A stretch of DNA of 64,000 nucleotides from an uncultured virus (IMG/VR IMGVR_UViG_3300042691_055981) (Duplodnaviria; Heunggongvirae; Uroviricota; Caudoviricetes). Positions 1,522-64,000 of the stretch are shown here, piece after piece. Below the pieces are notes generated by a model. The model did no database searches and was not told where the DNA came from. It saw only the letters and a program-made list of their open reading frames with translations. The stretch lies in IMG/VR virus record IMGVR_UViG_3300042691_055981; one strand, written 5' to 3'. Numbering within the stretch: position 1 is the first letter of the stretch; each line of letters begins with the position of its first letter. The translations under genes and the position numbers were made by a program.

Positions 1522-1869
1522 TTAATCACAATCTTGAGAAATCCATCTTCTCATTTGTAGATGGTCAAAAGCGTTTCTCAAGATGTCAACAGATAAATCA
1601 CAATCTGACATTGATCTGAACACCTTCTCAATGGCGTATAACGCATTTCCACGCTCGACAGAAGAATAATCTGCGGAAGCAACATCCGCTGAGAAATAAG
1701 CAACAGAAAAGCCCCTAGTGCCCTCTGCCAGATACTCCATCGCTAGGGTGATTATTGCCTGTGCTTCCTTTAGCGTGTTTCTGTATGTTCCTTGGTACAT
1801 ATTTTTCAATTCGCCAGAAACAAAAAAATTCCTCAGACCATTAAGATCTGAGGAACGCAATGCAATCAA
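1522..1869 (-). CDS. Hypothetical protein
   Basis: ORF fills the gap co-directionally with its neighbours; start uncertain. Confidence 0.5.
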   Translation of the reverse strand: MIALRSSDLNGLRNFFVSGELKNMYQGTYRNTLKEAQAIITLAMEYLAEGTRGFSVAYFSADVASADYSSVERGNALYAIEKVFRSMSDCDLSVDILRNAFDHLQMRRWISQDCD

Positions 1870-1878
1870 AAGTAATCG

Positions 1879-2325
1879 TTACTTACCGAATGGGATCGAG
1901 AATCCAAGACCAAATACATAGCCCCGGTTGCCATCCTGGAGTCGGAAGTTATCAGCAAGATTAAGACCCTTCATACCTCCGAAGAGAGTGAGCTTATATC
2001 CTGCGGTGTTAACTACATCATACGAAACTCCGAGTCCCATATATGCCTGCCGACTAATATCGTTTGGATCGAAAGCACCAATCGTGTTGAGCTTAAATCG
2101 GCCTTGAGTATTAGCAAAGGTATACAGAGGGAGGCTAAAAGCCGCGTAGTTGTCGAAACCATCTCGCAGATAGAGGAAGTTCAGGCTAGTGCTCGAAACA
2201 TCAACCGAAGTGGATTGAGCCGAGAACTGTCCTTGCTTCGTCTTTGGAGTGGTTGTGGTCGTCTGGCCCAGGGCAGTGCCGAGGAGAGCCATAACAGCGA
2301 TGAGAATCATAATAATTTTCTTCAT
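1879..2325 (-). CDS. Secreted, beta-strand-rich protein (small outer-membrane beta-barrel-like)
   Basis: Sec signal peptide MKKIIMILIAVMALLGTALG, alternating hydrophobic strands, C-terminal YVFGLGFSIPF; AAGGA RBS. Confidence 0.6.
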   Translation of the reverse strand: MKKIIMILIAVMALLGTALGQTTTTTPKTKQGQFSAQSTSVDVSSTSLNFLYLRDGFDNYAAFSLPLYTFANTQGRFKLNTIGAFDPNDISRQAYMGLGVSYDVVNTAGYKLTLFGGMKGLNLADNFRLQDGNRGYVFGLGFSIPFGK

Positions 2326-2339
2326 TTGTTTTCCTTAAT

Positions 2340-2900
2340 TTATTGTACGTTAAAAACTGCAAGAAATTGCGGATCAGCATTTTTTCTTAGCATTTTTTTT
2401 GCTCGGTGAATTTTTGTGCGAACCGTACCGATTGGTAATTCCATTTCTTCTGAAATCTCCAAATACGACTTGTCATCAATTAGATGGCACATAACTTCAC
2501 GCAAATCTTCTGGCAGATTGTTTATCATCGTAAACAGTTCGCCAACACTTTCTTTCTGAGCGTAGCTTCGGGCAATATCTGCTGAATTGTCAACAATATC
2601 ATACGTTTCAGATCCTTGTGTCTGGTGATCGAAATATTCAAGAGAATACACGTCAAGCTGTCGATTCTTATTTCTGACAGCATCAATGCTTGCATTTCTG
2701 ACAATAGAGGTCATCCAGTTAGTAAATTTCTTGCTCGGATCGTAAGAATTAAAATTTCTCCAAGCCTTTAGATAGGATACTTGAAGTACATCTTCTGCGG
2801 TTTCCTTGTTCCTGACTACGCTGTAAGCGATAGAATAGAGCTTGCCTTTAGATTCGGCAAACAATCTCTCAAATCTTTCTTTTTTATTTGTTAAGTCCAT
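2340..2900 (-). CDS. ECF-type RNA polymerase sigma factor
   Basis: AEDVLQVSYLKAW, FTNWMTSIVRN (region 2); SYLEISEEMELPIGTVRTKIHRAK (region 4.2). Start moved to ATG 2900 (cGATAAT-N6-ATG). Confidence 0.9.
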   Translation of the reverse strand: MDLTNKKERFERLFAESKGKLYSIAYSVVRNKETAEDVLQVSYLKAWRNFNSYDPSKKFTNWMTSIVRNASIDAVRNKNRQLDVYSLEYFDHQTQGSETYDIVDNSADIARSYAQKESVGELFTMINNLPEDLREVMCHLIDDKSYLEISEEMELPIGTVRTKIHRAKKMLRKNADPQFLAVFNVQ

Positions 2901-3012
2901 AATTACATTATCGTGTGTTTTCATACTTTTTCTCATTAACATAGATATCACAATCTTGATCAACCTATGTTAATGTATTTAGTATACCCGAATTTCGTGA
3001 AAGATGGAAAAA

Positions 3013-3547: not shown

Positions 3548-4240
3548 TTATACGAAAAATTCTCTCATCGTTTGCAATTTCTTTTTAATTTGCTTGTCTG
3601 TGATATTTCTTCTCGTTTCTGAAAATATTCGGGCAACTTTTGAAATTGAATAACCTTCTAGCAACAAACACACAATCTGTCTATCATCTTCAGATAGATT
3701 ATCAAGAGCAATGTTGAGCGTCACTTGATCGACAATATGATTTTCGCCCGATGTCTCAACATCTAGTAATTCATCTGAAATTATAACAGAATTAGGAGCA
3801 ATTAATGAATATTTTTTCTTAAAAGATTGAATATCGTTTTCATCTTTCAGATTGTGTTTTTGCTCGAATATTCTCTTCTTCTCTTCTGTAAACTTTCCAG
3901 CAAAATAAGATTTCACTTCTCTTAAATTACTCGGGCAAAGGACAAAAGATTCAGAGTCGTTTGTGCTTAATAGATGGAAATGTACAGTAGAGTACAAAAA
4001 TGTGGAAAGCTTCGCATCTGGGTTCGGCTTAAACCTTTTAAATGCAAGAATAGCACCCACAATGGCGTTTTGATAACAATCTTCGAAGATTGTGTTAGGG
4101 TGAGTGGATTGGTACTTGTAGGCCAATTTCTTTAAAAGACCGGAATGTCTTTCAAGTAGAGTTTCGAGAGCTTCGTTGTTGCCATTTGTGTAATCAGCAA
4201 TCAATTCAGCGTCAGTTTTAAGACGTGCTGTATGTTTCAT
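3548..4240 (-). CDS. Divergent sigma-70 family factor (phage-type)
   Basis: ALETLLERH..L, FEDCYQNAIVGAILAFKRF....KLSTF (region 2); ALDNLSEDDRQIV...GYSISKVA (region 4). Confidence 0.75.
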   Translation of the reverse strand: MKHTARLKTDAELIADYTNGNNEALETLLERHSGLLKKLAYKYQSTHPNTIFEDCYQNAIVGAILAFKRFKPNPDAKLSTFLYSTVHFHLLSTNDSESFVLCPSNLREVKSYFAGKFTEEKKRIFEQKHNLKDENDIQSFKKKYSLIAPNSVIISDELLDVETSGENHIVDQVTLNIALDNLSEDDRQIVCLLLEGYSISKVARIFSETRRNITDKQIKKKLQTMREFFV

Positions 4241-4929: not shown

Positions 4930-6122
4930 CCGGCTGTTTCAAAGGAAATCATTTTAGCATATTTGTCGCGTAAAGATTTCTTTTCTTCTTCTGGCAGCTT
5001 TTTAATTTGAGCGGGAGTAAATCCTAGCTTTGTGAAAAGTTTCTTTGAGAAAATATCAGTAAAATCAGAATTCACGTCATTCAATATTTGTTGCGTTTCT
5101 CTAAAAGCATCAGCTGGATTACCACCAGTGATTGTCGGCATAATTAGGCGGTTTCCTTCTGTCCCGGCCCTACCTAGTGACCTTTGATGAGATGTAGCCA
5201 AATCAGTGGGGACAATGACCACACGAACTTGATAACCTTCAACTAAGTTCCTTACCGCTTCATTTAGGATCATATCTGGCGAACCACCGACCATAGGCAC
5301 AACAATGTCGTTACCCTTGCTGAGTGCATCCTTTTGTATTTCGGGCTTCACTACGCTAACGGCATAAATCAAAGTGTTTTGAGATCCAGCACCGCCTTGA
5401 TAACCAATAAGATCTCTCTGGTATTCATCAGGGTCAACAAGAACACCATAGTTGGTCATTCTAACTGGATTATTGGCATCCCCACCTTCGGGCTCAATAT
5501 ATCTTGATTTTCCAGCACCTGGATAACCAATAAACAAAGTCACAGTCTGAGCCCCAGATGGTGTAGCGGTTGGTATCATGCCTTTATATTCTTCAGCCAC
5601 TTTCAAAGCCCATGTCTTTTTAGCCTCATTGTAGGTATTAAGAGGATTCCCGCCTTCAGACCCAAGATTAAATTGAGAAGAAACTACACTGAGATCTTTT
5701 TCTGAATTATAAATATCTCTTGCTTTTTCTTCAATTTTCCTGATCTTAAAAGCTTCGAAATCAGGTTCTCCAGATTCTTCAAATTTCTTTTCAAGCTGAG
5801 CGTAAAATTTAGGATCTTTCTCTAAAATAATGTTTTCAATTTTTTCAAAAGAATTACTAGCTCTCCAGGATTCATAGTTTGGAAATTGCTCGTTTTGAAA
5901 ATTCGAGTATTGTCTCAATTCATTTACATAATCACCCCAGATGTTTCCTAATTCTTCTGGGTTGTTATTTGGATTAAGTTTATTAGCTTGATCAATATAT
6001 TTTTGTCTAGCTTCGCTCAGACCGTGTGGTGTTTTGGCATTATATTCTCGCATCTTGAGAATATCTTCAATCTTCTGAGCGATTCTTTGCCTTAAATTAT
6101 ACCTGCTATATCGATACCACAC
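4926..6122 (-). CDS. Zeta-toxin-like P-loop kinase with N-terminal extension
   Basis: FIGYPGAGKS Walker A, VDPDEY, later R...R.(L)I pattern; GTG start MWYRYS. Confidence 0.65.
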   Translation of the reverse strand: MWYRYSRYNLRQRIAQKIEDILKMREYNAKTPHGLSEARQKYIDQANKLNPNNNPEELGNIWGDYVNELRQYSNFQNEQFPNYESWRASNSFEKIENIILEKDPKFYAQLEKKFEESGEPDFEAFKIRKIEEKARDIYNSEKDLSVVSSQFNLGSEGGNPLNTYNEAKKTWALKVAEEYKGMIPTATPSGAQTVTLFIGYPGAGKSRYIEPEGGDANNPVRMTNYGVLVDPDEYQRDLIGYQGGAGSQNTLIYAVSVVKPEIQKDALSKGNDIVVPMVGGSPDMILNEAVRNLVEGYQVRVVIVPTDLATSHQRSLGRAGTEGNRLIMPTITGGNPADAFRETQQILNDVNSDFTDIFSKKLFTKLGFTPAQIKKLPEEEKKSLRDKYAKMISFETAG

Positions 6123-6169
6123 AATCTGATTTTAAGAATTATGAGGCGAGATTCCTTTGTTTATCGTGT

Positions 6170-6844: not shown

Positions 6845-6896
6845 ACTATTAATTTACACAATCTGAAAAAGATTTCCTTTTATGTACAATTTTTTC

Positions 6897-7109
6897 ATGG
6901 ACATCGTGGTTAGTGTTATCAAGGACAATGAGAACGCTGAATATTGCGGGCAACTGTCAATAACTCAAATTAATTCCGAGTTTCTTTGTAAATATCACCT
7001 GGCAAACCAGACACAATCTGGAAAGGTGCTGACGGGAGATTTTAAAAGTAATTTTCAAAGCCTTTCTTCAATCATAGGGAAGCTTGAAGAAATTGTCAAC
7101 TCAAACTAG
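6897..7109 (+). CDS. Hypothetical protein
   Basis: TGTACAAT-N6-ATG places the start at 6897. Confidence 0.55.
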   Translation: MDIVVSVIKDNENAEYCGQLSITQINSEFLCKYHLANQTQSGKVLTGDFKSNFQSLSSIIGKLEEIVNSN

Positions 7110-7790
7110 GCACCATTTCTCCACACAATCTGGATAAAACTGAACAGATGTGAAGTTAGACTTAAGAATTAATAGCAGAGCTTTAAAATCCACAATTGAC
7201 AAAGAAGAATGGTAATTAGTGATAAAAGACTTTAAATCAAAGGCCTGGATTTGTTTTTGTTCAAAAAACTCCTGAAGATTATCTATTATCTCTGAAACAT
7301 AATGGCAATCACCAAATGTAGCTTCAAAATCAATTTTCTCCTTTAGATAGAGAAAGTGAGAATTAGGAACAAGGCTGGAGATGAAACCATATTTCTTAAC
7401 AAAATCTTGATTTAATTCAACTGATATGTTGTCATCGTAAATATACTTATCTTTATAATAACTTGGTTTTGACATTTTCACTTCTACATTTCCGTGATTG
7501 AATTTATCCAATCTAAATAATGTAGATTTGTTTTTTGACATTAGATCTAATCCAGATTGTGTATTGAGGTCACGATTAAAAACGCAAACAAAATCTGATA
7601 AATCAACAGATGTGCAATTATCGGGGAACCCACCAACGACATCAAACTGAGAAAGATCGAAATAATTTAGAGAGATATTATTTGGGATAATTGCACAAGA
7701 TTGTTTCGTGAGGGTTTTTAGGCAAATAAGCTCTTGCAGATTTAAATAAATCTCAAAAACATCACCAGAAACAATCCGATGATAAATCAT
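7101..7790 (-). CDS. Hypothetical protein
   Basis: 229 aa ORF coupled to the thyX stop (TAATG overlap). Confidence 0.6.
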   Translation of the reverse strand: MIYHRIVSGDVFEIYLNLQELICLKTLTKQSCAIIPNNISLNYFDLSQFDVVGGFPDNCTSVDLSDFVCVFNRDLNTQSGLDLMSKNKSTLFRLDKFNHGNVEVKMSKPSYYKDKYIYDDNISVELNQDFVKKYGFISSLVPNSHFLYLKEKIDFEATFGDCHYVSEIIDNLQEFFEQKQIQAFDLKSFITNYHSSLSIVDFKALLLILKSNFTSVQFYPDCVEKWCLV

Positions 7791-8662: not shown

Positions 8663-8707
8663 ACTAATATTATACGGGGAAAATGATTAAAGCTGCAAAT
8701 TATAAAC

Positions 8708-9277: not shown

Positions 9278-9565
9278 TTATTCGAGGGGTTTATAGAATC
9301 TTTTCTTTTTATCTCTGATATTATTTGGTAAAGTGCTGAGAACAAATTTAGTGAAATTGAATGAAAGATCGTTTTGGGTGTTATAATTCAAAACACAATC
9401 TTTATTCAGCATCATAAGATAACAATCAAAAATCTCTCGTTGATTACTAAAAAAATAAACACTTTCTAATTGATCGATCCATTTTAGATGCCCATCTTGT
9501 TGTTTTCTAAAATGGATAGGCAATGGAATGTAAATAATATTTCTGTCTTTCTGAAACGATTCCAC
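9278..9565 (-). CDS. Hypothetical protein
   Basis: In-frame GTG 7 nt after the minus-strand TACAAT of a bidirectional palindrome. Confidence 0.5.
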   Translation of the reverse strand: MESFQKDRNIIYIPLPIHFRKQQDGHLKWIDQLESVYFFSNQREIFDCYLMMLNKDCVLNYNTQNDLSFNFTKFVLSTLPNNIRDKKKRFYKPLE

Positions 9566-9572
9566 ACTCCAA

Positions 9573-9582
9573 ATTGTACAAT
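9573..9582. promoter_or_regulatory. Bidirectional -10 palindrome ATTGTACAAT
   Basis: ATG 9589 at +6 on plus; GTG 9565 at +7 on minus. Confidence 0.7.
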
Positions 9583-9927: not shown

Positions 9928-10469
9928 TGGAATTGTTTGGCGGGCTAAAACTGATAAAGCTTAAAACTTTCCAAGATGAAAGAGGGCAATTTTCTGAAAC
10001 TTTTGTTTTGAAAGATGATCTGTACCCTGTTAAATTTGTTCAAGATAATTGCTCGGTTTCAAAATTAGGAACAATCAGGGGCATGCATTATCAAATGAAA
10101 GTTCCTCAAACTAAATTAGTTTATTGCTTAGCTGGCCGAGTTTTAGATGTTGCAGTGGATTTAAGAGAAGACTCTCCGGATTTCGGCAAATGGTATAGCG
10201 TGGAATTATCGAGCGAAAATAATCTGGCTTTATATATACCTGGCGGGTTTGCACACGGGTTCCAGGCACTGGAAGATAATTCAGTGGTGTATTACAAATG
10301 TTCCAGCTATTATATGCCCGAAAATGATCGCTCGTTGCTTTATAACAGTGTAGATATAGATTGGAGAGATCTGCCTCAGATTGTGTCTGATAAGGATAAA
10401 GCGGGCAAACCATTTGATACTTGCGACAAGTACACATACAAGGATTTTAGCTTTTTGAAAGCTAATTAA
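9924..10469 (+). CDS. rmlC: dTDP-4-dehydrorhamnose 3,5-epimerase
   Basis: DERGQFSE, VQDNCS.S..GTIRGMHYQ, DVAVDLREDSP.FG.W, IPGGFAHGF. Confidence 0.95.
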   Translation: MMELFGGLKLIKLKTFQDERGQFSETFVLKDDLYPVKFVQDNCSVSKLGTIRGMHYQMKVPQTKLVYCLAGRVLDVAVDLREDSPDFGKWYSVELSSENNLALYIPGGFAHGFQALEDNSVVYYKCSSYYMPENDRSLLYNSVDIDWRDLPQIVSDKDKAGKPFDTCDKYTYKDFSFLKAN

Positions 10470-10474
10470 AGATT

Positions 10475-10915
10475 GTGTGGTACAGATACAGCCAAGAAGA
10501 TCCTAATGTTCAAGAATTAGACCCGAATAAATTCAGGCAGAACATTCCTTCCGGTGGAAGACTGGAAATTGAGTTAATTGGTGGGCAATTCAACATGGGT
10601 CCAAATGATCCGCCTAAGCAGATCCAAATAAAAACTAGCAATGGCACACAAAGAAGCATTTACATTCTCCATGGAACACCAGATGGCATGTTGGCATTTG
10701 GTGATGCGGGGCAATTACAAAGCGGTACCGCAGATGAATTTAAAGATTGGCTAAAATCCAAAGGCATGCCAGATCTTCCGTACATATCTTGTTTTGGATC
10801 TAAGATTGTGGGATCTTCTGGCGGAGCAGATCAGCTCATTAATGCCGCCGGGGCTGTGCAAGTAGGAACCACACAACAAGATGGTGTACAGAAATTAGTG
10901 TTTGAAGATGCTTAA
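10475..10915 (+). CDS. Hypothetical protein; possible caspase-hemoglobinase-fold (HG...SC) peptidase domain
   Basis: YILHGTPDG and YISCF; GTG start MWYRYS; AGG at -34. Confidence 0.45.
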   Translation: MWYRYSQEDPNVQELDPNKFRQNIPSGGRLEIELIGGQFNMGPNDPPKQIQIKTSNGTQRSIYILHGTPDGMLAFGDAGQLQSGTADEFKDWLKSKGMPDLPYISCFGSKIVGSSGGADQLINAAGAVQVGTTQQDGVQKLVFEDA

Positions 10916-10922: not shown

Positions 10923-12232
10923 GTGAACTACCGCTAGGCTAAAGACCTAGCGGCTTCCTGCTTCATAGATTCCGATTTGCGGCCCGGAAGGGCCGTAGGG
11001 ATCAGATTCTCCACAGGCGTGAATTCGGTATGTTCCGTACCTATAAGATTTTGTCCGAATAATATCATCATGTTAGCTGAGTGAATGTCTCTATCACAGC
11101 TATAACCACAAGCACATTCGTAAATACGCTGACTTAGATTGTGTTTGTTCTTACATCCGCAAATGCAAGATTGTGTAGTTGGAATGAATTGATCTAACAT
11201 AATTGCCCTTGGACAATTTTTTAATTTCATCTTCACTCTGCCTAGCACAGAATGTTGTATCTTCTTACTCCCTCTGGCTAATGATTTTTTATTCTTCCAT
11301 CCTTTGATGTTTTCGTCTTGAAAATAAATATGCTCAAATTGTTTCAATTCTGACACAATCTTATTAGCAATGTCATTTTTAACATTACCAATCTGTTGAT
11401 ATTCTTTTCTGATTTTCTTGATTGTTTTATCTCTGTTGTTAGAACCTTTTTTTCTTCTAGATAATTCTCTCTGAAGAGTTTTAAGTCGTTCAGTTTCTTC
11501 AACATAAACATTGATTTTCTTTCCATTAGATAAAGTTATATTATCTTTAATTCCCATATCCAGACCTATGCTTGTTCCTGTTTCATACTGGTCTTTAACT
11601 TTACTTTTATGTACATATGTCGTGATAGCTACATAATATCCATCAGGTCTGCTAATTAGTTTTGCATTCGCACAATCACAATCTGGATCAAGCTGGTGCA
11701 ATCCTTTAACTCTAACATCACCTGAAACTCCTTGTATTTTCATTTTAGTTTCAGATTTAATTTTGTATGTAGCCCCGAATTGTTTCAGATTAATGGATTT
11801 CACTTCAGATGTGAATTTTAGTGAACCAATCTTCTTTCCTTTTTCTCTTACTCTTGCTAATGCCCTAATATTGTCTTTCACTTCATCTATCACAGATTGG
11901 GTTTGCTGTGCTGAGATGAATTTCTTTTCTCTTGGCTCAAGTACACCATCTTTATTCATCACTTGAATTAAATCACCACATTTGTAATCAAAAATAGGAT
12001 TATCTTGACCAAATGCAATCATTTCATTTCTAATCCATTTAGCTTCAACAAAAAGCATTTTTAGTTGTTCTTTTTGCTTTTGATTAAGTTTATTAGATTG
12101 TATTTTAACTGTGAACACTTTGCAAGATTGGGTTTTTCTTTTTTCCTTAGTTTCAGACATGCTCATGCTAATCAGCATGTTCCTCTCAGAACGTGCTGAT
12201 TGATCCATATTAGATCTTCTGTGATGAGGCAT
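10923..12232 (-). mobile_element. Solo TnpB element (IS200/IS605-type, no tnpA) with right end and omega-RNA region
   Basis: tnpB 3' end overlaps GAAGCC-GCTAGG-TCTTTAG-CCTAGCGG-TAGTTCAC, a typical right-end hairpin plus TTCAC terminus. Left end not identified. Confidence 0.75.
10934..12232 (-). CDS. tnpB: RNA-guided endonuclease TnpB
   Basis: RuvC-I IGLDMGIK, RuvC-II YFQDENI, Zn finger CICG...CACG, RuvC-III DRDIHSA. Confidence 0.9.
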   Translation of the reverse strand: MPHHRRSNMDQSARSERNMLISMSMSETKEKRKTQSCKVFTVKIQSNKLNQKQKEQLKMLFVEAKWIRNEMIAFGQDNPIFDYKCGDLIQVMNKDGVLEPREKKFISAQQTQSVIDEVKDNIRALARVREKGKKIGSLKFTSEVKSINLKQFGATYKIKSETKMKIQGVSGDVRVKGLHQLDPDCDCANAKLISRPDGYYVAITTYVHKSKVKDQYETGTSIGLDMGIKDNITLSNGKKINVYVEETERLKTLQRELSRRKKGSNNRDKTIKKIRKEYQQIGNVKNDIANKIVSELKQFEHIYFQDENIKGWKNKKSLARGSKKIQHSVLGRVKMKLKNCPRAIMLDQFIPTTQSCICGCKNKHNLSQRIYECACGYSCDRDIHSANMMILFGQNLIGTEHTEFTPVENLIPTALPGRKSESMKQEAARSLA

Positions 12233-13103: not shown

Positions 13104-13150
13104 GCCCTTTAATTTTTCCATCTCTCACAATCTGAAGGTATAATGTATAT

Positions 13151-13768
13151 ATGCAAGTTTTTATGCCGTATGCAGATTACAAAAAAAGCGTTCAAGCACT
13201 TGATAAGAAGAGACTCGTCAAGCAATCGCTTGAGGCTACGCAGTTATTGGACATCATTTTTAACCTCCCAACAAAATCTGGAAAACCCAGAAAGGGTTGG
13301 ATGAACCACCCAGCTTTGATAGCATGGAAAGACACTCCCGGTGCTTTAATTGAATATTTGATTCATAATGCAACAGAAATGAGAGCAAGGGGATGCAAAA
13401 CTGATTATGTAGACAGAAAGCTACAAGAGTACAAAAAGTTTACCACATCTTTACAAAACCCTATTTGGCTCGGAGACGAAGAAATCCACTCGTCACATAG
13501 ATTCAGGCTCTTACAAAAAGGCTTTGAAGAAAAATTCAATGTAATTTCATACAAGTATGGAGATACAGAAAAAGCAGATGAAACCATAATGTGGTATTCG
13601 AGTTTTGGATGGGAAGAGATGAAAGACGATGAGTTTTTTATGAAAGAGTATTTCTGGCCTATTAATCTAACATCATCTTCATATGACAAGGCACAAAAAA
13701 TTCACAAAAATGGCGTTAAACATAAACACTATCTGATTCAGACATTTGGAGCAAATCCATGGGCGTAA
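13151..13768 (+). CDS. Pyrimidine-dimer DNA glycosylase (DenV/MSMEG_6728-like)
   Basis: MQVFMPY, LDKKRLVKQ..E..Q, GWMNHPA...W, P.WLG....H.SHR..LL.K. Confidence 0.8.
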   Translation: MQVFMPYADYKKSVQALDKKRLVKQSLEATQLLDIIFNLPTKSGKPRKGWMNHPALIAWKDTPGALIEYLIHNATEMRARGCKTDYVDRKLQEYKKFTTSLQNPIWLGDEEIHSSHRFRLLQKGFEEKFNVISYKYGDTEKADETIMWYSSFGWEEMKDDEFFMKEYFWPINLTSSSYDKAQKIHKNGVKHKHYLIQTFGANPWA

Positions 13769-14286
13769 TTAGATATTCTGGTATAGGCTCAAGAGAGACT
13801 CCAGACAATGTTTTAGTTGTGATGGAAAAACTCGGGGCGGCATTCGCAAAGAAAGGATTTGTTTTGAGATCAGGCGGTGCAGAAGGGGCTGATTCAGCTT
13901 TTGAAAGGGGTTGCGACGCAGGTGGTGGAAAGAAGGAAATCTATTTACCCTGGAAAGGATTCAATGGAAATAATTCAGATCTTTACAATCTGTGCGACGA
14001 GGCATTCCAGATTGCCTGGGATTTCCATCCAAATCTATACGGAACCACAGGCGGAACACAAAAGCTAATGGCTCGCAATACTTACCAGGTTCTGGGGTTG
14101 GATTGCAAGACAAAAGCAGATTTTATCGCCTGCTACTGCCCTCTTGATAAAAAAGGAAACTGGCGAGGCGGCACATCACAAGCTCTCAGAATTGCAAAAA
14201 GTTACAACATCCCAATCTTCAATCTCCTCAGTAAAGAAGATCTTGATCAGTTAAAAAACTTTGTAAATCAATTAAGCACAATCTGA
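13759..14286 (+). CDS. SLOG/DprA-like Rossmann-fold protein
   Basis: YSGIGSRETP, LRSGGAEGADSAFE, LMARN..QVLG, GGT.QALR.A...IP.FNL. Confidence 0.8.
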   Translation: MGVIRYSGIGSRETPDNVLVVMEKLGAAFAKKGFVLRSGGAEGADSAFERGCDAGGGKKEIYLPWKGFNGNNSDLYNLCDEAFQIAWDFHPNLYGTTGGTQKLMARNTYQVLGLDCKTKADFIACYCPLDKKGNWRGGTSQALRIAKSYNIPIFNLLSKEDLDQLKNFVNQLSTI

Positions 14287-14292: not shown

Positions 14293-14835
14293 TTAAACAT
14301 TAGCTTCAGCAAAAATCTTTTCCATCAGAGAATGGATTTTTTCTTTAAATTCATCTTCGGTTCCATTGTTCTCTATTGTGTGCTCAAACAGATGATGATA
14401 GTTATCTAATTCAATTTCAGAAGAGTGATTGGAAAAAGAATCAACCGACAAATCACGCTTAATATGAATAGTGTGACCACCCTTTGAGTTAATGTAATTA
14501 ATCTCATTAAGGTATCTGGCATCAGTGATGATATAGATCGCATCAGGGTCTGTCATCTTATAGAAAGCTCGGCCTACCCAATAATTTTCACCACAGAATT
14601 CTCTCCTAATGGTTCCCCATCCTTGCAACAAAGGTCTGGCGATTTCTTTAAGATCGTCATCGTCAAACATTTTTCTAGACAAACCACAAGGGGTGAGCAA
14701 GATTGTGTCAAGCTCTTCTTTTAGCTCGTCTGCGAAAGCAACACGAATTACCTTTTTATCTGGGTAAAGCTCTTGGACTAGGCGGCAGAAAGTGTCCTTC
14801 CCCACTCGTTTCTTGTAAGAACAACTAATGATCAT
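14293..14835 (-). CDS. Deoxynucleotide monophosphate kinase-like
   Basis: KKRVGKDT, AFADELK, R.LLQ.WGT..R, IITDARY.NE, HSSE..LD. Confidence 0.8.
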   Translation of the reverse strand: MIISCSYKKRVGKDTFCRLVQELYPDKKVIRVAFADELKEELDTILLTPCGLSRKMFDDDDLKEIARPLLQGWGTIRREFCGENYWVGRAFYKMTDPDAIYIITDARYLNEINYINSKGGHTIHIKRDLSVDSFSNHSSEIELDNYHHLFEHTIENNGTEDEFKEKIHSLMEKIFAEANV

Positions 14836-14887
14836 CTCATAGTATTATACGACAGGTTTTTGGCGGATTTTCTTTTAAAATAAGATT

Positions 14888-18382: not shown

Positions 18383-18759
18383 AGGTAGATGTCTCCAAAT
18401 TTTTTGTTAATCGTGTCAACTAGATAAGAAAATGTTTTAGGGGCTCTCACAGGTAGCTCCGCAAGTCCCGTTCCAAGCCCATCCTCTGGAAAGACGATGC
18501 AATCATAGCCCGATGGAATATTCTCAATAGCGTTGTTGATAGCATCAACATTCTGATCATATTCGGAATCGCTAAAGAAAGACTTACTCGACATCGAAGG
18601 AGCCTTCTTTGTGGGAATGCCGTAAGCATTTGGTTCATTTCTAATAATCGCTTGTCCGCCGCAACCTATATCCAGAAGATTATTACCAAATATGAAAACA
18701 CAATCTGGGTTTTCGCGGACTACATCAACAGTGTAACGCTTCAATTTCTTGACTTGCAT
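18379..18759 (-). CDS. Conserved phage protein (FG.N...G.GGQA.IR..PNA.GIPTK family)
   Basis: Motif string present, plus FPEDGLGTGLA.L. Confidence 0.7.
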   Translation of the reverse strand: MQVKKLKRYTVDVVRENPDCVFIFGNNLLDIGCGGQAIIRNEPNAYGIPTKKAPSMSSKSFFSDSEYDQNVDAINNAIENIPSGYDCIVFPEDGLGTGLAELPVRAPKTFSYLVDTINKKFGDIYL

Positions 18760-21820: not shown

Positions 21821-21843
21821 TATCTCAGATTGTACAATTGGAA

Positions 21844-29761: not shown

Positions 29762-29771
29762 ATTGTACAAT
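29762..29771. promoter_or_regulatory. Bidirectional -10 palindrome ATTGTACAAT
   Basis: CAT-N6-ATTGTACAAT-N6-ATG: symmetric, both starts at +6. Confidence 0.8.
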
Positions 29772-29777
29772 CTAATT

Positions 29778-33307: not shown

Positions 33308-33323
33308 AGTCAAATTGTACAAA

Positions 33324-35879: not shown

Positions 35880-35901
35880 CTGTAATTTGTACAAAAAAAA
35901 G

Positions 35902-46711: not shown

Positions 46712-47572
46712 TCAATCTTTTTTTTCAAACAAGCTTTTATGCGGACATTGTGTCAATTCTGATTTCTTTAATTTCTTGAATGTAAATGGATCTTTCTCTC
46801 CAGTCATGATCCATTTTTTGTAATTGTATTCAGAATACCTTTCATACATCTGAACACAATCTTGATCATCAGCATTCATTAGTTTCTCTTCAGTGACCCA
46901 TTGCGTGTCAAAACTAGATCTGTGAATAGGGATAAGCTGAGCGATTGGCCATTCTTGATCCTTTCTAAGGCTAAGCATTTTATCAAATGCATGGAATTTA
47001 AAATTAGTCCATATATCATATCTCATCCAGTCCATCTCTAGCATGCCTTCTTGCACCGTTACTGGACAACCCTGGTCATAGATTAAACCAATATTAGAGG
47101 GGCTTTTTACCAATAGGCACCAATCTTTAGGCATCTGAAATACACAACCAGTCCATAAGCTAATACAATTCTTCTCTGGTTCATCAATACTATAATGCTG
47201 TCTGCCATTATAAATTTGCCCGTATTTATTAGGATTCTTTGACTCAAACTCTGACATTTGAATTAAATCAGAATTGTCATAGCTTTTGATATTATAAGTG
47301 AAATTACCACCCCATCTGCCAGTGAAGCAATTGTCTGTTTTTTGTGCATGGCAAGTAATATCTAAATCAAAACCGGGGTAAACCCACCAACCCAAGGAAT
47401 TAGCTATCCCATATGGCCCGCACCAAACCAATGCATCTTTATTTGCGTGACCTTTGAGAGTTCGCTCGGCCTTCTCAATTCTCGCTCCATTGGGATGAAT
47501 TCTATAAACTTTCAAAAGAGGATCGCTATAATGGTGAGCACTCGTCTCAAAAACTGTTTTCTTGTCATCCAT
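46712..47572 (-). CDS. DUF6065-like protein
   Basis: WCGPYGIANSLGW, E.DW, PIAQLIP; start from the bidirectional -10 site (MDDKK). Confidence 0.6.
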   Translation of the reverse strand: MDDKKTVFETSAHHYSDPLLKVYRIHPNGARIEKAERTLKGHANKDALVWCGPYGIANSLGWWVYPGFDLDITCHAQKTDNCFTGRWGGNFTYNIKSYDNSDLIQMSEFESKNPNKYGQIYNGRQHYSIDEPEKNCISLWTGCVFQMPKDWCLLVKSPSNIGLIYDQGCPVTVQEGMLEMDWMRYDIWTNFKFHAFDKMLSLRKDQEWPIAQLIPIHRSSFDTQWVTEEKLMNADDQDCVQMYERYSEYNYKKWIMTGEKDPFTFKKLKKSELTQCPHKSLFEKKD

Positions 47573-47578
47573 AATGAA

Positions 47579-47588
47579 ATTGTACAAT
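47579..47588. promoter_or_regulatory. Bidirectional -10 palindrome ATTGTACAAT
   Basis: ATG 47572 (minus, +6) and ATG 47596 (plus, +7). Confidence 0.75.
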
Positions 47589-47595
47589 TGTATAT

Positions 47596-51189: not shown

Positions 51190-51755
51190 GATTTTTGTCT
51201 TTCTTTCCATATCTGTAAATCAAGTTCGTGAGGTTTTAAGTTTTTTCGCTGACATTCAGATATGAAAAACTGTTCGTATTTGGTGTACTCTTTTTTGTTT
51301 GATGGAGTGGCCTTGGGTGCTTGAGGATAGTAGTTGCGAAGCCAAGCCAGGATATGAGTATCTAAGATTGCGTAATTAGTTTCGGGGCGAGAATATGTAA
51401 CAAAAAATCTGGAAGTTTTCATACCTATGCCGGGAACAGATTCAAGATCCTCGCAAGAGCATGTATTAAGATCGAATTGCTTCCTTGATAGAATAAACAG
51501 ACATCCACACAATCTGTTGTATTGTCCCGCTTTAACTTCAATCAGCTTATCCTTAATCTCTTCTATGGATAGTTTTCCAAGTGCATTAAAAATTCCATTT
51601 TCGAGATTCAATTTTTCCAGAAAAAGTTCTAGCTTTTTAGATTGTGTTTTTGAGCTTTTACCAGCAACGAAGATGCAAAGAAGTAAGAATTCTTCAAGCT
51701 CGTATTGAGTGCGAGAATAGTTCTGGGGATTTAATAGATCAGTCTTCAGTTTCAT
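51177..51755 (-). CDS. HhH DNA glycosylase/lyase (Ogg-like)
   Basis: VPGIGMKTSRFF, AILDTHIL, Y...E..F, ELDL.IW. Confidence 0.75.
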   Translation of the reverse strand: MKLKTDLLNPQNYSRTQYELEEFLLLCIFVAGKSSKTQSKKLELFLEKLNLENGIFNALGKLSIEEIKDKLIEVKAGQYNRLCGCLFILSRKQFDLNTCSCEDLESVPGIGMKTSRFFVTYSRPETNYAILDTHILAWLRNYYPQAPKATPSNKKEYTKYEQFFISECQRKNLKPHELDLQIWKERQKSWKA

Positions 51756-52323: not shown

Positions 52324-54289
<1,966 letters not shown>

Positions 54290-55377: not shown

Positions 55378-56142
55378 TCACATCATCACAGCTGGCACAA
55401 CTATTCTTCTTCTGGCAGGAGAGCTTGATGTTGACGCTGTGGCGTTTAGTGCAATAGCCAGACCATTGTAAGCCAAACCACCGAAGTTTGCATCTGTAAT
55501 ATTTCCGCCTGCTGTACCAGTTGCCGTAACAATTTTATAAGCCACAATCTGACCGGCACTAATGCTGGCTGGCGAACCCCCTCCGGCAACCCACCCGCCA
55601 GCGGAGGTTTGAAGAGGGTTGGGCGATACAATTGTATAGCCATTAGTGGGTAAAGTTCCCGAAGGGGCTCCGCTCAGGAATTGATCATCCCAGGAATATA
55701 TATTTACCCAGTATTCATCAGCTGTAGTAGTTGTGGCAGTGGTTCCAGTTTGGTAAGAGTCTCCACTGCCAGCGAATGTGCTGGATTTGTCAAGAAGATT
55801 GGCAGCGACGGCAACTAAACCGGAAACTTCCTCTATTATGGTGGTGAATAAATTATTTGCTGATCCTAAGACCATCGTTATAGTCGTATTGCTACTGACC
55901 GGTGTATCAGCAAGTGCATAAACATATATATTATTATTGGAAACAACAGATGAAGTAATTAAAGTCCATGTCGCTGATGACCCCCCCTGAGTAATAGAAG
56001 TAATCGACAAGGCCGATCTACTTTGAATATACATGAGGAGGCATCTTCCCGAGGTTGGAGTGAAGGACAGAGTAAACGTCCACGTTGTTGCTGCATTTTC
56101 ATTAGCAGACCCCGAGTTTAAATTATTCCTTACTGCTGGCAT
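55378..56142 (-). CDS. Putative virion/tail-associated beta-sandwich protein
   Basis: T/S/A/G-rich; directly downstream of the tail fibre; GGAG RBS. Confidence 0.55.
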   Translation of the reverse strand: MPAVRNNLNSGSANENAATTWTFTLSFTPTSGRCLLMYIQSRSALSITSITQGGSSATWTLITSSVVSNNNIYVYALADTPVSSNTTITMVLGSANNLFTTIIEEVSGLVAVAANLLDKSSTFAGSGDSYQTGTTATTTTADEYWVNIYSWDDQFLSGAPSGTLPTNGYTIVSPNPLQTSAGGWVAGGGSPASISAGQIVAYKIVTATGTAGGNITDANFGGLAYNGLAIALNATASTSSSPARRRIVVPAVMM

Positions 56143-62100: not shown

Positions 62101-63012
62101 GCCATTATAATTATCGCTTAATGCATTGTTTCCGATGACAATCGTGGAGCCAGGATTTTCAATACCAAAAGTATTATTAGTATTAGCTGAATCACCGATA
62201 TAAACACCCGGCATTATAGTATCATTCGCGGTTCCCTGGTTTACATTTCTTCCAATTATAGTGGCCCTTTCAACAAATGCAAACCCAAAGCTAGTAGCAC
62301 CAAAACCGATAATTGTATTAGTGAAGGAGTTCCCAGCACCAATATAGATTTTGTCTACATAAATTTCTTCTGTAGTTTCAAAGGATCCACGAGGATTTGT
62401 TAATCCAATACCCAACGAGCCATTTCTGAAGACAAAAGTGCTGATGCCCTGGATAGTGTTTGATGATGAGCCGAACGCCACTTGGTTTGAAGAAATTGAT
62501 CCACCTATGCTTGCAGATGAAGCAGGAATCCATTCTACACCATTTGTGGTAGAAGATAATATTTGACCAGCCGTTCCGGGGCTGAAATTTCTGTCATAAA
62601 ATGGCCCGCTTAAATTTAATGAACTAAATGTAGATAATCCTACGGAGAAGATTTGAGAAAACGATGCGATTCCTGAAACAGTGATTGTATTTGACACAAT
62701 CTTGCCAGAGAGCGGGAAGAATTGAATGGCGGGAAAGCTGGAAATCCCAGTGAAAGAACCAGCATAGTCTTGGTACGGCCCAACAAATTTTCTTTGATTA
62801 TTGAGTGTTCCAATTCCGCCAAGAAGAATTACTGGCTCTGAATTTTGTTCCCAGTTATAGATTGTGGAACGTAAATCATCAACATTTGGGGTAAAAACAA
62901 AGGTGCCGACACCAGATTCATACCATTTTAAATCAATCTGGGAAACAGATGTGCTAAGCCCACTGTAAGAACCCGGAGTAATCAATATGCTTTTATTAGT
63001 CTGTGCTGCCAT
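56152..63012 (-). CDS. Giant repetitive tail fibre / adhesin (2286 aa)
   Basis: Recurrent G.LGIGT..P...L.V, LTNLNASNLASGTVPS and (V/I)IG beta-helix repeats. Confidence 0.8.
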   Translation of the reverse strand: MAAQTNKSILITPGSYSGLSTSVSQIDLKWYESGVGTFVFTPNVDDLRSTIYNWEQNSEPVILLGGIGTLNNQRKFVGPYQDYAGSFTGISSFPAIQFFPLSGKIVSNTITVSGIASFSQIFSVGLSTFSSLNLSGPFYDRNFSPGTAGQILSSTTNGVEWIPASSASIGGSISSNQVAFGSSSNTIQGISTFVFRNGSLGIGLTNPRGSFETTEEIYVDKIYIGAGNSFTNTIIGFGATSFGFAFVERATIIGRNVNQGTANDTIMPGVYIGDSANTNNTFGIENPGSTIVIGNNALSDNYNGSTNSGMLIIGNNAYRYVENNDVFSTSTVIGHDAYSGTPATPMQDSGGGNSVVIGYGAVFAVSHGNSVVIGNVAGFGTFTLSSNSNNTIVGAYAGPYMSNSNNNTFIGNSVNVSYSPTNPFTGENNIAIGAGAGVTNGNYQIAIGIDGNTRTARSNAGAWGGITNATRTDLGIGTLNPLARLHVATLNAANAGFYLAGQPSQTANLFRIDQIINGNPYFVINGIGSVGIYTSVPTQAFDVLGNVRFRGNIFDSSNTSGTANQILVSTSSGILWTSANTIGIVTGINGVANYLAKFGSPNSLTTSNIIDNGSVITIGLGMSVNGFSSSLGFYGPGTNLTNLNASNIASGTVPSARVSGSYSGITSVGNLTNLNVIGIASATGYTGDGTNLTNLNASNLASGTVPSVVLSGTYSGITSVGTLTQLRVTGISTLAGASISSFLLDLAGRPGLANSVLTSIGTAVLWSASAGGGGGGGGTIGGSISATQIAFGASPNNIQGIGTLVLINGLLGVNTNAPLANLDVFGVVNVTGVVTSLGYTGPGTNLTNLNASNLESGTVPSATVSGFYSGITSVGTLTQLRVTGFSTVNNLAVSGSIYDSVNNVGLARSVLISTGTGISWSSVPAAGRNTWVQFNSGGTLGASTNLTFDAATSRLALGGGIEVGQDSFLSNKARMYYDSSLGLVFSGRAGSGNDLTFTSGSGNIVFSNPTGTSDFQLTNGSLLAAGFGSFGGYVRIDGGSFAAGQNRLYQDGSLGFVAVGGRSGTANDFTLLARDGFTIFRNPTGTRNLEFTNGTITVPAGNFGIGTTIPNSKLHVETLSASARGFYLAGQPSQTANLLRFDQTTNGLPYLVVTGIGSIGVYTSIPTQAFDVSGNVRLRGGVWDSSNNQGLANSVLTSTGSGGVLWAAPGSGTPGGGTIGGSISATQIAFGASPNNIQGVGTFVLINGLLGVNTNNPVANLDVFGVVNVTGVVTSLGYTGPGTNLTNLNASNLASGTVPSDRVSGNYSGITSVGTLTQLRVTGISTLAGASISSFLLDLAGRPGLANSVLTSIGTAVLWSASAGGAGGGTIGGSISATQIAFGASPNNIQGIGTFVFNNGSLGIGTDSPRGSLETTNEIYVDNIYIGAGNSFTNTIIGFGASTGGGDSDYSVVIGFDINSNNPPTKGVLIGSNASSNQTNQQFEDISTHVIIGNNAHSELLNFRPASAKVVIGADAYYNVNNTLDIDSGNSVVIGADAFSGTKDNPVTDHTAMVVIGNNASRYATHGNSVVIGFNAGLGTYTLSASQNNTLIGFQAGWYQEGSVAEGNTFIGANANSVYNASNPFTGSDNIAIGRGVGVTDGNYQIAIGVSIKTARANAGAWGGITNATRTDLGIGTLNPLSRLHVETLNASHAGFYLAGQPSQTANLLEIDRITNGSPYFVITGIGSVGIYTSIPTQAFDVSGNVRFRGNIFDSSNTSGLANQVLVSTSSGILWTSANTIGIATVINGLTNYIAKFGNPNSLTTSNIIDNGSVITIGLGMSVNGFSSSLGFYGPGTNLTNLNASSLASGTVPSARVAGNYSGITSVGNLTQLNVIGVVTSLGYFGPGTSLTNLNASNLASGTVPSAVVSGTYSGITSVGTLTQLRVTGISTLAGASISSFLLDLAGRPGLANSVLTSIGTAVLWSASAGGGPGGGTIGGSISVNQIPFGASANTIQGVSTFVLNNGLLGVNTDNPLSNLDVFGTFNVSGFSTVRNINISGRLYDNSVGSGNTGQLLTSTNSGIAWTTIDAIYYNLGADQVAYGIGTTTITGASTFVYRNGNLGVGTVAPTAGLHVQAGARFNGEIFDRNNSSGGPIGIISQVLTSTGTGVTWAPIKRSLVIPLMTAFTPTQVGIDSAVFIVPQDPINGIGIVTFNFRRVNLRVETPYAGITTINIAKSTGSGRFVGTSILQSNLNIIGAATYESNSTSFAVGYTTCSSGDKLSVNFIGVNTFHQNFTVELIAQEA
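57050..62430 (-). repeat. Internal direct repeats of the tail-fibre gene
   Basis: An ~1.7 kb module occurs twice (~62430-60650 and ~58830-57050). The GITSVGTLTQLRVTGISTLAGASISSFLLDLAGRPGLANSVLTSIGTAVLWSASAGG block occurs three times (~57100, ~58920, ~60700). Boundaries approximate. Confidence 0.85.
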
Positions 63013-63369
63013 TTAAAATATCCCGTCAGTGATAACCTTAATGTCTCCTGAAACCGCCACCTTCGTGGATGTTGGGTCGTCTTGAATTTGGAACTTATAT
63101 TTGTACTCCCCAACCTGTGTTAAAACATAATTTATATAATAAACTCCGGCCTCTTCTTCTTCAACTGCGGGAGTGGCGGAGTAAACCCCTGTGCCATTAT
63201 TAAAGCTAGACTGCGTAATGTTGGGGTCGTTTGAAATTATTTGGTTATTTGGTGTAAGGATATACCAATAGATAACGCGGGAGCTGCTCAATCCTACAAG
63301 ATTATTGTTGCTATCCAAAACTTCAAACGAAATTTTAGAATTCGTATTTCTGTAAAATAAGTTCGCCAC
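63013..63369 (-). CDS. Ig-like virion protein
   Basis: GVYYINY.....GEY.Y.F; AGG at -34. Confidence 0.55.
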   Translation of the reverse strand: MANLFYRNTNSKISFEVLDSNNNLVGLSSSRVIYWYILTPNNQIISNDPNITQSSFNNGTGVYSATPAVEEEEAGVYYINYVLTQVGEYKYKFQIQDDPTSTKVAVSGDIKVITDGIF

Positions 63370-63393
63370 GTTATTATATTTGAATTATTGATT

Positions 63394-63606
63394 CTAAAAA
63401 CCTGTTTGCGGATTGGTGCTAATTGTCTTTATCGCCTCAACTTTTGAACGAACAAATCTAGGCTCTACTCCGGTAACAATCGTGCCATTATCTGGTATAA
63501 TTGCAACAACCGCAGTTCTGCCCTTTCGAAATGAATAGGATACCTGACCTGATACTACAAAAAAATCTGAAAAGGTCCCGCCGGCAAATGTTAAATCGCC
63601 AAACAT
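63394..63606 (-). CDS. Small virion-module protein
   Basis: MFG...FA..TFS N-terminus, common in tail modules; abuts the upstream stop. Confidence 0.5.
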   Translation of the reverse strand: MFGDLTFAGGTFSDFFVVSGQVSYSFRKGRTAVVAIIPDNGTIVTGVEPRFVRSKVEAIKTISTNPQTGF

Positions 63607-64000
63607 TTATGACTCCAATGAGAATTTTGTATCAGTTCTTGATCCTATAATTAAATAATTATACTCAATTGGCTTTAAAGATGGAATTAAATTCTTGATT
63701 ATAAACGAATTTTTCATTTTCACAATCTTAAAAGGCATAAAGGAGTTAGATGTAACGGCGATTGTAGGATTTTCTGAAATTTTTAAGAAATAATCGGGCA
63801 AAATAATCTCCGCACACCATCTTGTTTTTATAATTCCCCGCTGATACATTCCGTATTCTGGGCCTTCAAGACAACCATGTATTAAGAATTTGTTTTTCAA
63901 GATTGGGTGTTTGATTTTGAAAGCCTTAGCAGTGGCCTGAATTACACCATTCACGAATAATTCCGGGGTATTTCCGGGGTAAAATTTTAAATCTGGGTCG
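63607..64000 (-). CDS. C-terminal part of a tail-fibre-type protein (5' end outside the window)
   Basis: K.F.I.HP......L.HGCLEGPE..Y.RG...I.LPDY C-terminal domain; frame open to the window edge. Confidence 0.7.
   Translation of the reverse strand, partial: DPDLKFYPGNTPELFVNGVIQATAKAFKIKHPILKNKFLIHGCLEGPEYGMYQRGIIKTRWCAEIILPDYFLKISENPTIAVTSNSFMPFKIVKMKNSFIIKNLIPSLKPIEYNYLIIGSRTDTKFSLES

Follow-up and report, generated by a model that had tools for sequence, protein, structure and literature searches.

The stretch of DNA analyzed here, 64,000 nucleotides of an uncultured virus recorded in IMG/VR as IMGVR_UViG_3300042691_055981 (subsequently "the window"), comes from a huge bacteriophage, is 96% coding, and is pervaded by the octamer CACAATCT. 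This octamer ("the word") is non-palindromic and differs from its reverse complement, AGATTGTG. It is a genome-wide iterated word in a huge phage that doubles as a promoter-spacer element, and the finding is real, strong, conserved in a relative, written against coding constraints, and tied to an architecture of early promoters and arrays. An even chance is given to the explanation that a putative sequence-specific DNA-binding protein of this huge-phage lineage recognizes A-CACAATCT-G/T, which would serve as an early-promoter operator and also genome-wide. The reader protein would most likely be phage encoded, and it would probably read the word along the whole chromosome.

Few DNA signals reshape entire genomes. 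Iterated words that occur genome-wide, such as the uptake signal sequence (USS), the DNA uptake sequence (DUS), HIP1, and Chi, belong to these few, and the reader of HIP1 is still not known. The word sits in a huge phage, which is a small closed system of about 350 kb and gives direct handles for finding the reader. The system allows a test of whether the genome-wide copies serve silencing, marking, or protection, and in freshwater metagenomes, the word provides a sharp marker of the phage lineage at the sequence level. A search of the literature at the level of titles and abstract openings gave no paper on the word or on such a signal in huge phages.

Enrichment of the octamer and its conservation in a related phage

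A total of 58 copies of the word are present in the window, 34 on the plus and 24 on the minus strand (Table 1). Shuffling that preserved the dinucleotide composition yielded a mean of 3.06 copies (standard deviation, 1.76; maximum, 8), and none of the 100 shuffled sequences reached 58. An earlier note on this DNA, written from the sequence alone, had counted at least 58 copies where 2 or 3 were expected; the number is exactly 58, and every position that it gave was found again. No other 8-mer is as frequent in the window, and among the 7-mers, ACAATCT ranks first, with 91 copies. Extended forms were frequent, with 34 copies of ACACAATCT, 27 of CACAATCTG, and 17 of ACACAATCTG. The base 3' of the word was G in 27, T in 26, A in 5, and C in none of the 58 copies, and the base 5' of it was A in 34. 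Variants with one mismatch, the many near-copies of the earlier note, occurred 151 times compared to approximately 70 expected. Their excess came from word positions 1 to 4 (115 versus 39), with none at positions 5 to 8, the AATCT part (36 versus 31), so that the degeneracy of the word, strict at positions 5 to 8 and tolerant at positions 1 to 4, looks like a position weight matrix.

The copies are distributed over unrelated genes, with 52 of the 58 within open reading frames (ORFs) in all six frames, 21 in sense and 31 in antisense orientation. Synonymous-codon shuffling within genes left 15.2 ± 2.5 copies (maximum of 24 in 300 shuffles), a figure that includes about 6 unshuffled intergenic or edge copies, and shuffling of the codon order left 8.8 ± 1.5 copies (maximum, 13). 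The enrichment thus survives codon-preserving shuffles. Among the 90 in-gene places of the window where the encoded protein is compatible with the word, 51 (57%) carried it, compared to an average of 4.7% for 40 control words of the same composition. With six frames, both orientations, and this portion of the synonymous opportunities taken, the claim that the word is a DNA signature and not a protein repeat has held. Spacing was close to a Poisson distribution, with a mild, approximately 1.5-fold excess near gene ends, and the density was 0.91 copies per kb.

Twenty public runs, which belong to 14 studies, contain the part of the window between 48 and 56 kb, and in 7 of them at least half of its sampled words were present; the organism labels of the runs were freshwater, lake-water, "fungus," and plain metagenomes, and no RNA run was among the listed runs. 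The window sequence is therefore not a one-off assembly artifact. An adapter or assembly origin of the word itself was likewise rejected, on the basis of in-frame copies in unrelated ORFs, the saturation of an independently assembled related genome, and the occurrence in these runs.

This related genome, G008, is an IMG/VR phage genome of 347,392 bp (CheckV, 99%) and the sole relative found for the window. It was the only genome returned by a first protein alignment search. It was also the one real case among 32 stretches obtained when viral contigs were scanned for three word copies at gaps of 60 to 90 nucleotides (nt); the others turned out to be AT-rich DNA of giant viruses or tandem repeats on one strand. 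A 94.7-kb genome, G009, was set aside, as its arrays consist of TGTGAA..TTCACA palindromes and contain the word only incidentally. G008 contains 389 copies of the word, 166 on the plus and 223 on the minus strand, whereas the reversed control word has 21, and no 8-mer of G008 is more frequent; the presence in related phages had been proposed as a check in the earlier note, and one such phage is G008. Synteny with the window, in reverse orientation, extends over 247 to 323 kb of G008, with BLAST pieces of 65 to 72% nucleotide identity, proteins 24 to 80% identical, and 64.9% identity over 19,386 codon-aligned nt. Between 82 and 347 kb of G008, the word occupied 172 of 385 protein-compatible places (45%), compared to an average of 3.8% and a maximum of 11.5% for 30 control words. 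The G008 form is A-CACAATCT-G and the window form is the word followed by G/T, and intragenic copies carry no flank information beyond the A at position −1 and the G/T at position +9.

Aligned columns of 34 orthologous gene pairs contained 11 window copies and 19 G008 copies of the word, and 5 of these were shared. Where the covered amino acids were identical, the word was present in both phages at 5 of 5 places, with none having it in one phage only. The baseline for other aligned 8-mers was 5.9% identity overall and 16.9% where the amino acids were identical, which indicates that at silent positions the word has been retained or written anew. Many of the copies that are not shared were situated at differing amino acids, for instance, TQS versus PNP, SKD, TRK, TSL, or KIS, and the word therefore also costs amino acid changes. 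In the window, genes lacking an orthologue in G008, mostly those of a sugar island, contained 0.91 copies per kb and those with an orthologue 0.70 per kb; lineage-specific genes are brought to full word density. Three TnpB genes of G008 (about 3.6 kb) had no copy, and the TnpB-like gene of the window had four.

Within G008, 269 of the 389 copies are inside ORFs, and the 120 not fully inside called ORFs are concentrated between 4 and 82 kb and belong to four settings described below: the promoter units, two tandem arrays, a start-codon class, and a family of tandem units. The body of G008 (0.71 copies per kb; 102 copies in sense and 70 in antisense orientation to transcription) is independent evidence, and the promoter units and the tandem units at 14 to 33 kb described below are paralogous copies.

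More distant sequences were not enriched in the word. Megablast against the GenBank phage collection gave no close relative of the window, and a relative of its 728-aa ORF was looked for and not found. A second protein alignment search led to 16 further loci that share the ORF at 51177-51755 with about 40% identity; they had 0 to 4 word copies each and no comparable iterated word either, so that no "dialects" were seen. GroEL relatives in viral contigs were 35 to 47% identical, and the word was not enriched there. The 2286-aa ORF at 56152-63012 (−) is without a Pfam or PHROG family, and its G008 counterpart has 2792 amino acids. Among GenBank phages, it showed weak partial similarity (33 to 42% identity over 5 to 11% of the length) to three Synechococcus phages only (5 records), in some of which the matching region is annotated as baseplate wedge or tail fiber. 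These three phages were not enriched in the word (17, 16, and 8 copies in genomes of 168 to 241 kb).

Promoter units, inverted pairs, and arrays

The early region of G008 contains 60 promoter units with the structure TTCCA-NN-TTTAA-[8 nt]-N3-TATAAT-N4-start; a terminator hairpin precedes the majority, and nearly all are located at 34 to 68 kb on the plus strand. The 8-nt slot, which is the spacer adjoining the −10 box, was filled by CACAATCT in 28 units, by CATAATCT in 7, by CAAAATCT in 1, and by unrelated sequences, mostly of the CATTTYCN type, in 24. This indicates that the promoter exists with and without the word. In 8 of the 28 word-bearing units, a second, inverted word copy is situated 22 bp upstream, and the pair forms a perfect 11-bp inverted repeat, CAGATTGTGTT-N10-AACACAATCTG, across the −35 region. 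The window has a single promoter-like unit of this kind, at 13116-13153, in which the 18-nt distance from TTTCCA to TATAAT is kept and the word is shifted by 2 nt. The ATG of the ORF at 13151-13768 follows 6 nt after the TATAAT, as in a leaderless type. The 2-nt shift fits an operator in the spacer better than a contact of RNA polymerase.

Two arrays complete this architecture. At 68.39 to 68.49 kb of G008, 8 word copies follow each other with a 14-bp period and are succeeded by an AT-rich tract and G-runs. At 33.2 to 33.35 kb, a 46-bp unit with two words and one TATGGATAA is repeated about four times; TATGGATAA is one mismatch away from the DnaA-box consensus. In addition, approximately 45 tandem units of about 160 bp each, beginning with ATGATTAATACAGATTGTGTGG, occupy 14 to 33 kb. 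These units continue with 9-nt repeats of the CAGGTGNNN type, which would give x-x-Q-V repeat peptides if translated, and the tract has a very strong G-over-C skew of 0.38 to 0.52.

A further class of copies lies over start codons. AGATT-GTG-TGG-TAY starts ORFs with the N terminus M-W-Y-R/K-Y, seven in G008 and two in the window, and a third window ORF has the same GTG-TGG start followed by N-S-Y (protein M-W-N-S-Y). A TAAAAT-like hexamer is located 6 nt upstream, and the ORFs are otherwise unrelated. Third-position changes (TAT/TAC and AGA/CGA) suggest, at the level of the sequence, that the N-terminal peptide M-W-Y-R/K-Y itself may be conserved. The M-W-Y terminus might serve in targeting or processing, or the motif might reflect the context of a leaderless start.

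Start sites in both phages share other properties. Many window genes have a TATAAT 4 to 7 nt ahead of the start codon. The regions upstream of genes are A-rich, with a TATAAT-like box at most 20 nt from the start in 17 of 76 cases in the window and 114 of 425 in G008. The Shine-Dalgarno signal is nearly nil, with a 4-mer match at 13 of 76 window starts and 77 of 425 G008 starts. Leaderless or near-leaderless messages seem to be common in both phages.

A role of the word in RNA was rejected, since copies occur in both orientations with respect to transcription and those of the promoters precede the start, and so was a function of the intragenic copies as promoters, with no −10 box following them.

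The strict 3' half and the tolerant 5' half of the word, the slot in the promoter spacer, the inverted pairs, and the arrays together constitute the anatomy of a protein-binding site. The position of the word in the spacer between the conserved upstream box (TTCCA..TTTAA) and TATAAT, sometimes with an inverted copy over the −35 region, has the geometry of an operator, and binding at the early promoters would gate them, most simply by repression. Written about once per kb on either strand and in any frame, wherever the protein allows it and sometimes at an amino acid cost, the word would let the putative protein occupy the whole genome, whether it acts there as a silencer or roadblock, coats or marks the DNA, or works through titration. 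A more far-reaching version, possible but doubtful, is a "genome address" system, in which one phage protein would read the 9- to 10-bp word, gate about half of the early promoters, and, with the word at about 1 copy per kb over the remaining 350 kb, tell phage from host DNA and silence, coat, or organize the chromosome. If true, the word would represent a kind of cis-element that has not been described for phages. G008 encodes a Mom-like protein, and the target context of Mu Mom does not fit the word.

Several points weigh against a DNA-binding protein as the reader. No candidate for it emerged when the window, 274 G008 ORFs (those of at least 75 aa, apart from 16 that cross locus borders), and the neighbors of the arrays and of the inverted-repeat promoters were scanned against Pfam and PHROG. 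The 28 word-bearing promoter units are paralogous copies, not 28 independent placements, and the promoter evidence comes almost wholly from G008, with the window lacking the early region of its own phage. A plain operator leaves the approximately 1 copy per kb inside genes unexplained. The orientation of the copies shows no bias, and between the two phages it is even opposite, unlike in the one well-studied case of dispersed phage repressor sites, and the Poisson-like spacing gives no sign of selection for even coverage. Finally, a process at the level of the cell may be involved.

Known systems and alternative explanations

The nearest described system is the operator and stoperator set of the cluster A mycobacteriophages. 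A monomeric repressor of the L5 gp71 type binds there to >20 asymmetric 13-mers in a genome of roughly 50 kb, and the stoperators are located in short intergenic spaces with an orientation tied to transcription (PMC9283540). Both systems share an asymmetric site in dozens of dispersed copies, the same site at early promoters and elsewhere, and a comparable density (>20 in roughly 50 kb versus 0.7 to 0.9 per kb). In contrast to the cluster A sites so described, most copies of the word are inside ORFs, in all frames and without an orientation rule; moreover, the word has 9 to 10 bp instead of 13 bp, and the genome has about 350 kb. Since neither the intergenic location nor the orientation rule was found, the word is not a member of the cluster A system, though by analogy its working may be related. 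The gp71-type repressor combines a helix-turn-helix with a stoperator domain, and no family of this type was matched when G008 and the window, which is a minor part of its phage's genome, were scanned with Pfam and PHROG.

A host chromosome saturated with the word, similar to uptake sequences or HIP1, could be mirrored by a phage that is subject to the same cellular process or selection, which we consider rather unlikely. The USS of Pasteurellaceae and the DUS of Neisseriaceae resemble the word in being non-palindromic 9- to 10-mers with about 1 copy per kb, in both orientations and every frame, at some protein cost, and with a slight difference of flank preference as between the two phages (A-word-G versus word-G/T); Poisson spacing and intragenic copies also agree. 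They differ in being chromosomal words of competent bacteria read by an uptake machinery, for example by the minor pilin ComP, whereas the carrier here is a huge phage, and in not being promoter-spacer elements. Host USS accumulate in Pasteurellaceae phages, but those of >150 kb are USS-poor (PMC6776037). No enrichment was found in 411 bacterial genomes, a count in which Bacteroidota and Pseudomonadota were left out: the 10-mer reached at most 23 copies per genome in 401 Cyanobacteriota genomes, and the 10 further genomes, from Omnitrophota, Bacillota, Spirochaetia, Cyanobacteriota, Verrucomicrobiota, Planctomycetota, and Saccharibacteria, were not enriched. A scan of metagenome contigs for triple words in 4 of 64 parts gave only one-strand tandem repeats, and none of the 113 loci examined there was enriched on both strands. 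A passive mirror would also not be expected to produce a fixed promoter slot and arrays, and the absence of copies from the mobile TnpB genes of G008 is weak evidence in the same direction. Uptake-sequence logic requires a host that carries the word, so that the count in 411 genomes does not support this explanation. HIP1 is a palindrome, which the word is not, and GCGATCGC is absent from both the window and G008.

Chi is the second of the comparisons made in the earlier note. If the word were the site of a host RecBCD or AddAB enzyme, a phage with permuted linear ends might keep it in both orientations and so attenuate the host exonuclease, a very unlikely explanation in our view. Known Chi sequences are G/T-rich and contain no C, and AGATTGTG has the same properties; both orientations everywhere would suit headful-packaged DNA. 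Chi is strongly over-represented, inside genes, in the genomes of lambdoid phages lacking recombinases and is selected against in lambdoid phages with recombination functions of their own (Bobay et al. 2013, PMC3784561). The octamer of that account is the known Chi of the host and is concentrated between the origin and the packaging site of recombinase-less phages; in contrast, the word is spread evenly on both strands of a phage whose own genes include those for RecA, RecJ, an SbcCD-like pair, and a PD-(D/E)XK nuclease. Outside the early region of G008, no orientation skew was present, and 10-kb bins from 70 to 347 kb were mixed in sign without a trend. The promoter slot, the inverted pairs, and the 14-bp array also remain unexplained by Chi.

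A sequence-specific repair or conversion process of the very-short-patch kind might turn near-matches into the word without any function of the latter. We regard this as quite improbable, even though the word is imposed despite its amino acid cost and in lineage-specific genes. The most conserved window protein, encoded at 51177-51755 (−) and 80% identical in G008 (phrog_11575), gave a weak match to a helix-hairpin-helix (HhH) DNA glycosylase (PF22175; E value, 7e-07), and a second HhH-glycosylase-like gene is located in the early region of G008. However, no single-mismatch precursor was consistently depleted, variants at positions 1 to 4 were enriched and not consumed, and such a process leaves the promoter slot, inverted pairs, and arrays unexplained.

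Least probable of all is a site for a replication initiator or an extended primase site, with iterons at the origin and scattered copies for priming or titration: the 14-bp array with its AT-rich tract and the array of two words plus TATGGATAA look origin-like, and G008 has a split DnaG-type primase, but its cumulative GC skew showed no turning point that would mark an origin at the arrays, no initiator gene was recognized beside them (the flanking ORFs had no family match in a lenient PHROG scan), long gaps are not in deficit as regular priming sites would require, and known DnaG-type primases recognize trinucleotides. Direct repeats combined with inverted repeats at promoters recall the Rep proteins of iteron plasmids, and the direct-repeat array beside an AT-rich tract, seen only in G008, is a likeness to iterons and Rep operators. 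Iterons differ in being confined to origin and control loci, whereas the word recurs by the hundreds across coding sequence.

A sequence-specific DNA-binding protein offers the best explanation for the promoter slot, the inverted pairs, and the arrays of G008. The interpretation of the earlier note, a DNA signature perhaps bound by a phage protein, stands in this part, but not in its likening to Chi, the polarity of which is absent in G008, or to HIP1 in form; packaging, segregation, and self-marking received no support from any result.

Positions of the copies and other features of the window

The copies of the word are listed in Table 1 together with the ORFs that start on a GTG within it.

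Table 1. Copies of the word in the window, and ORFs of the window and G008 starting on a GTG inside the word
Feature	Position	Strand	Context
word	1527..1534	+	antisense, ORF 1522-1869(-)
word	1599..1606	+	antisense, ORF 1522-1869(-)
word	2949..2956	+	antisense, close to start of sigma-factor ORF 2340-2963(-)
word	3671..3678	+	antisense, sigma-like ORF 3548-4240(-); shared at aligned G008 place (QIV)
word	3849..3856	-	sense, ORF 3548-4240(-)
word	4087..4094	-	sense, ORF 3548-4240(-)
word	6120..6127	+	over GTG start of ORF 4926-6122(-); gene strand AGATT-GTG-TGG-TAT; protein M-W-Y-R-Y
word	6857..6864	+	intergenic 6845-6881
word	7012..7019	+	sense, ORF 6882-7109(+)
word	7124..7131	+	antisense, ORF 7101-7790(-)
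word	7554..7561	-	sense, ORF 7101-7790(-)
word	9394..9401	+	intergenic 9346-9573
word	10378..10385	-	antisense, dTDP-sugar epimerase ORF 9924-10469(+); shared at aligned G008 place (QIV)
word	10470..10477	-	over GTG start of ORF 10475-10915(+); protein M-W-Y-R-Y
word	10803..10810	-	antisense, ORF 10475-10915(+)
word	11136..11143	-	sense, TnpB-like ORF 10934-12232(-)
word	11168..11175	-	sense, TnpB-like ORF 10934-12232(-)
word	11354..11361	+	antisense, TnpB-like ORF 10934-12232(-)
word	11677..11684	+	antisense, TnpB-like ORF 10934-12232(-)
promoter-like unit	13116..13153	+	TTCCA-TCTCT-CACAATCT-GAAGG-TATAAT-GTATAT-ATG; word 13126-13133 in spacer
word	14277..14284	+	sense, at stop of ORF 13759-14286(+)
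word	14700..14707	-	sense, dNMP-kinase ORF 14293-14835(-); shared at aligned G008 place (DTIL)
word	14883..14890	-	over GTG start of ORF 14888-17074(+)
word	18699..18706	+	antisense, ORF 18379-18759(-); shared at aligned G008 place (PDCV)
word	20513..20520	+	antisense, S-adenosylhomocysteine hydrolase ORF 19391-20629(-)
word	22451..22458	+	sense, ORF 21838-22506(+)
word	22903..22910	+	sense, ORF 22485-23621(+)
word	23164..23171	+	sense, ORF 22485-23621(+)
word	23282..23289	-	antisense, ORF 22485-23621(+)
word	23561..23568	-	antisense, ORF 22485-23621(+)
word	24176..24183	-	antisense, transaldolase-like ORF 23625-24317(+)
word	27153..27160	+	antisense, aminotransferase ORF 26377-27582(-)
word	27829..27836	+	antisense, epimerase ORF 27494-28405(-)
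word	28934..28941	-	sense, ORF 28402-28980(-)
word	29878..29885	+	sense, ORF 29763-30680(+)
word	30460..30467	-	antisense, ORF 29763-30680(+)
word	30898..30905	-	antisense, ORF 30677-31900(+)
word	32221..32228	+	sense, ORF 31890-32723(+)
word	32589..32596	-	antisense, ORF 31890-32723(+)
word	32779..32786	-	sense, ORF 32729-33322(-)
word	36078..36085	+	sense, ORF 35887-36699(+)
word	36163..36170	+	sense, ORF 35887-36699(+)
word	36245..36252	+	sense, ORF 35887-36699(+)
word	37142..37149	+	sense, ORF 36714-37841(+)
word	37196..37203	-	antisense, ORF 36714-37841(+)
word	38002..38009	-	antisense, ORF 37835-39076(+)
word	38446..38453	-	antisense, ORF 37835-39076(+)
word	39486..39493	+	antisense, ORF 39050-39772(-)
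word	42483..42490	-	antisense, ORF 41807-43060(+)
word	44897..44904	+	antisense, ORF 44670-46223(-)
word	46855..46862	+	antisense, ORF 46712-47755(-)
word	51508..51515	+	antisense, ORF 51177-51755(-); shared at aligned G008 place (RLC)
word	51639..51646	-	sense, ORF 51177-51755(-)
word	54022..54029	+	antisense, close to start of GroEL ORF 52324-54081(-)
word	55543..55550	+	antisense, ORF 55378-56142(-)
word	62695..62702	+	antisense, 2286-aa ORF 56152-63012(-)
word	62859..62866	-	sense, 2286-aa ORF 56152-63012(-)
word	63721..63728	+	antisense, ORF 63607-63999(-)
ORF starting on GTG in word	window 6122	-	
ORF starting on GTG in word	window 10475	+	
ORF starting on GTG in word	window 14888	+	
ORF starting on GTG in word	G008 68910	+	
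ORF starting on GTG in word	G008 72591	+	
ORF starting on GTG in word	G008 74901	+	
ORF starting on GTG in word	G008 303189	+	
ORF starting on GTG in word	G008 172150	-	
ORF starting on GTG in word	G008 81442	-	
ORF starting on GTG in word	G008 80474	-	

The gene content of the window includes a transfer-messenger RNA (tmRNA), a phage-type GroEL, ThyX, a deoxynucleoside monophosphate (dNMP) kinase, NrdG, a NusG-like gene, an S-adenosylmethionine decarboxylase, two sigma-factor-like genes, TnpB, and a transaldolase-like gene; sugar-nucleotide and glycosyltransferase genes form an island of about 23 kb. The tmRNA gene is located at 1081-1470 (−) (Rfam RF00023, 102 bits), with the predicted tag AKTSKKTRRFNPGFGYGAATMTA; G008 likewise has a tmRNA and, in addition, 24 tRNA genes. 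The sugar island, at 20900-44033, encodes Gmd, several epimerases or dehydratases, two DegT aminotransferases, and two UDP-glucose dehydrogenase-like proteins, and further GT11, GT61, FkbM methyltransferases, a GHMP kinase, and the transaldolase-like protein. Most of it is without a G008 orthologue.

The palindrome GCGC does not occur in the window, compared to 75.9 ± 8.9 copies expected, and the window has 88 GGCC and 82 CCGG sites. G008 contains 228 GCGC but only 9 GGCC and 2 CCGG sites. This avoidance of different restriction-type palindromes suggests that the window phage and G008 have hosts or strains with different restriction systems.

One run contained a 29.6-kb contig of a strain with about 3.5% divergence, in which positions 6141-6738 and 8677-8706 of the window are swapped for 866 and 835 other letters, respectively; these are variable cassettes flanked by conserved genes. 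In G008, two ORFs of about 330 amino acids, at 147447-148430 (−) and 307603-308634 (+), carry a type IV pilin-like N-terminal methylation motif (PF07963).

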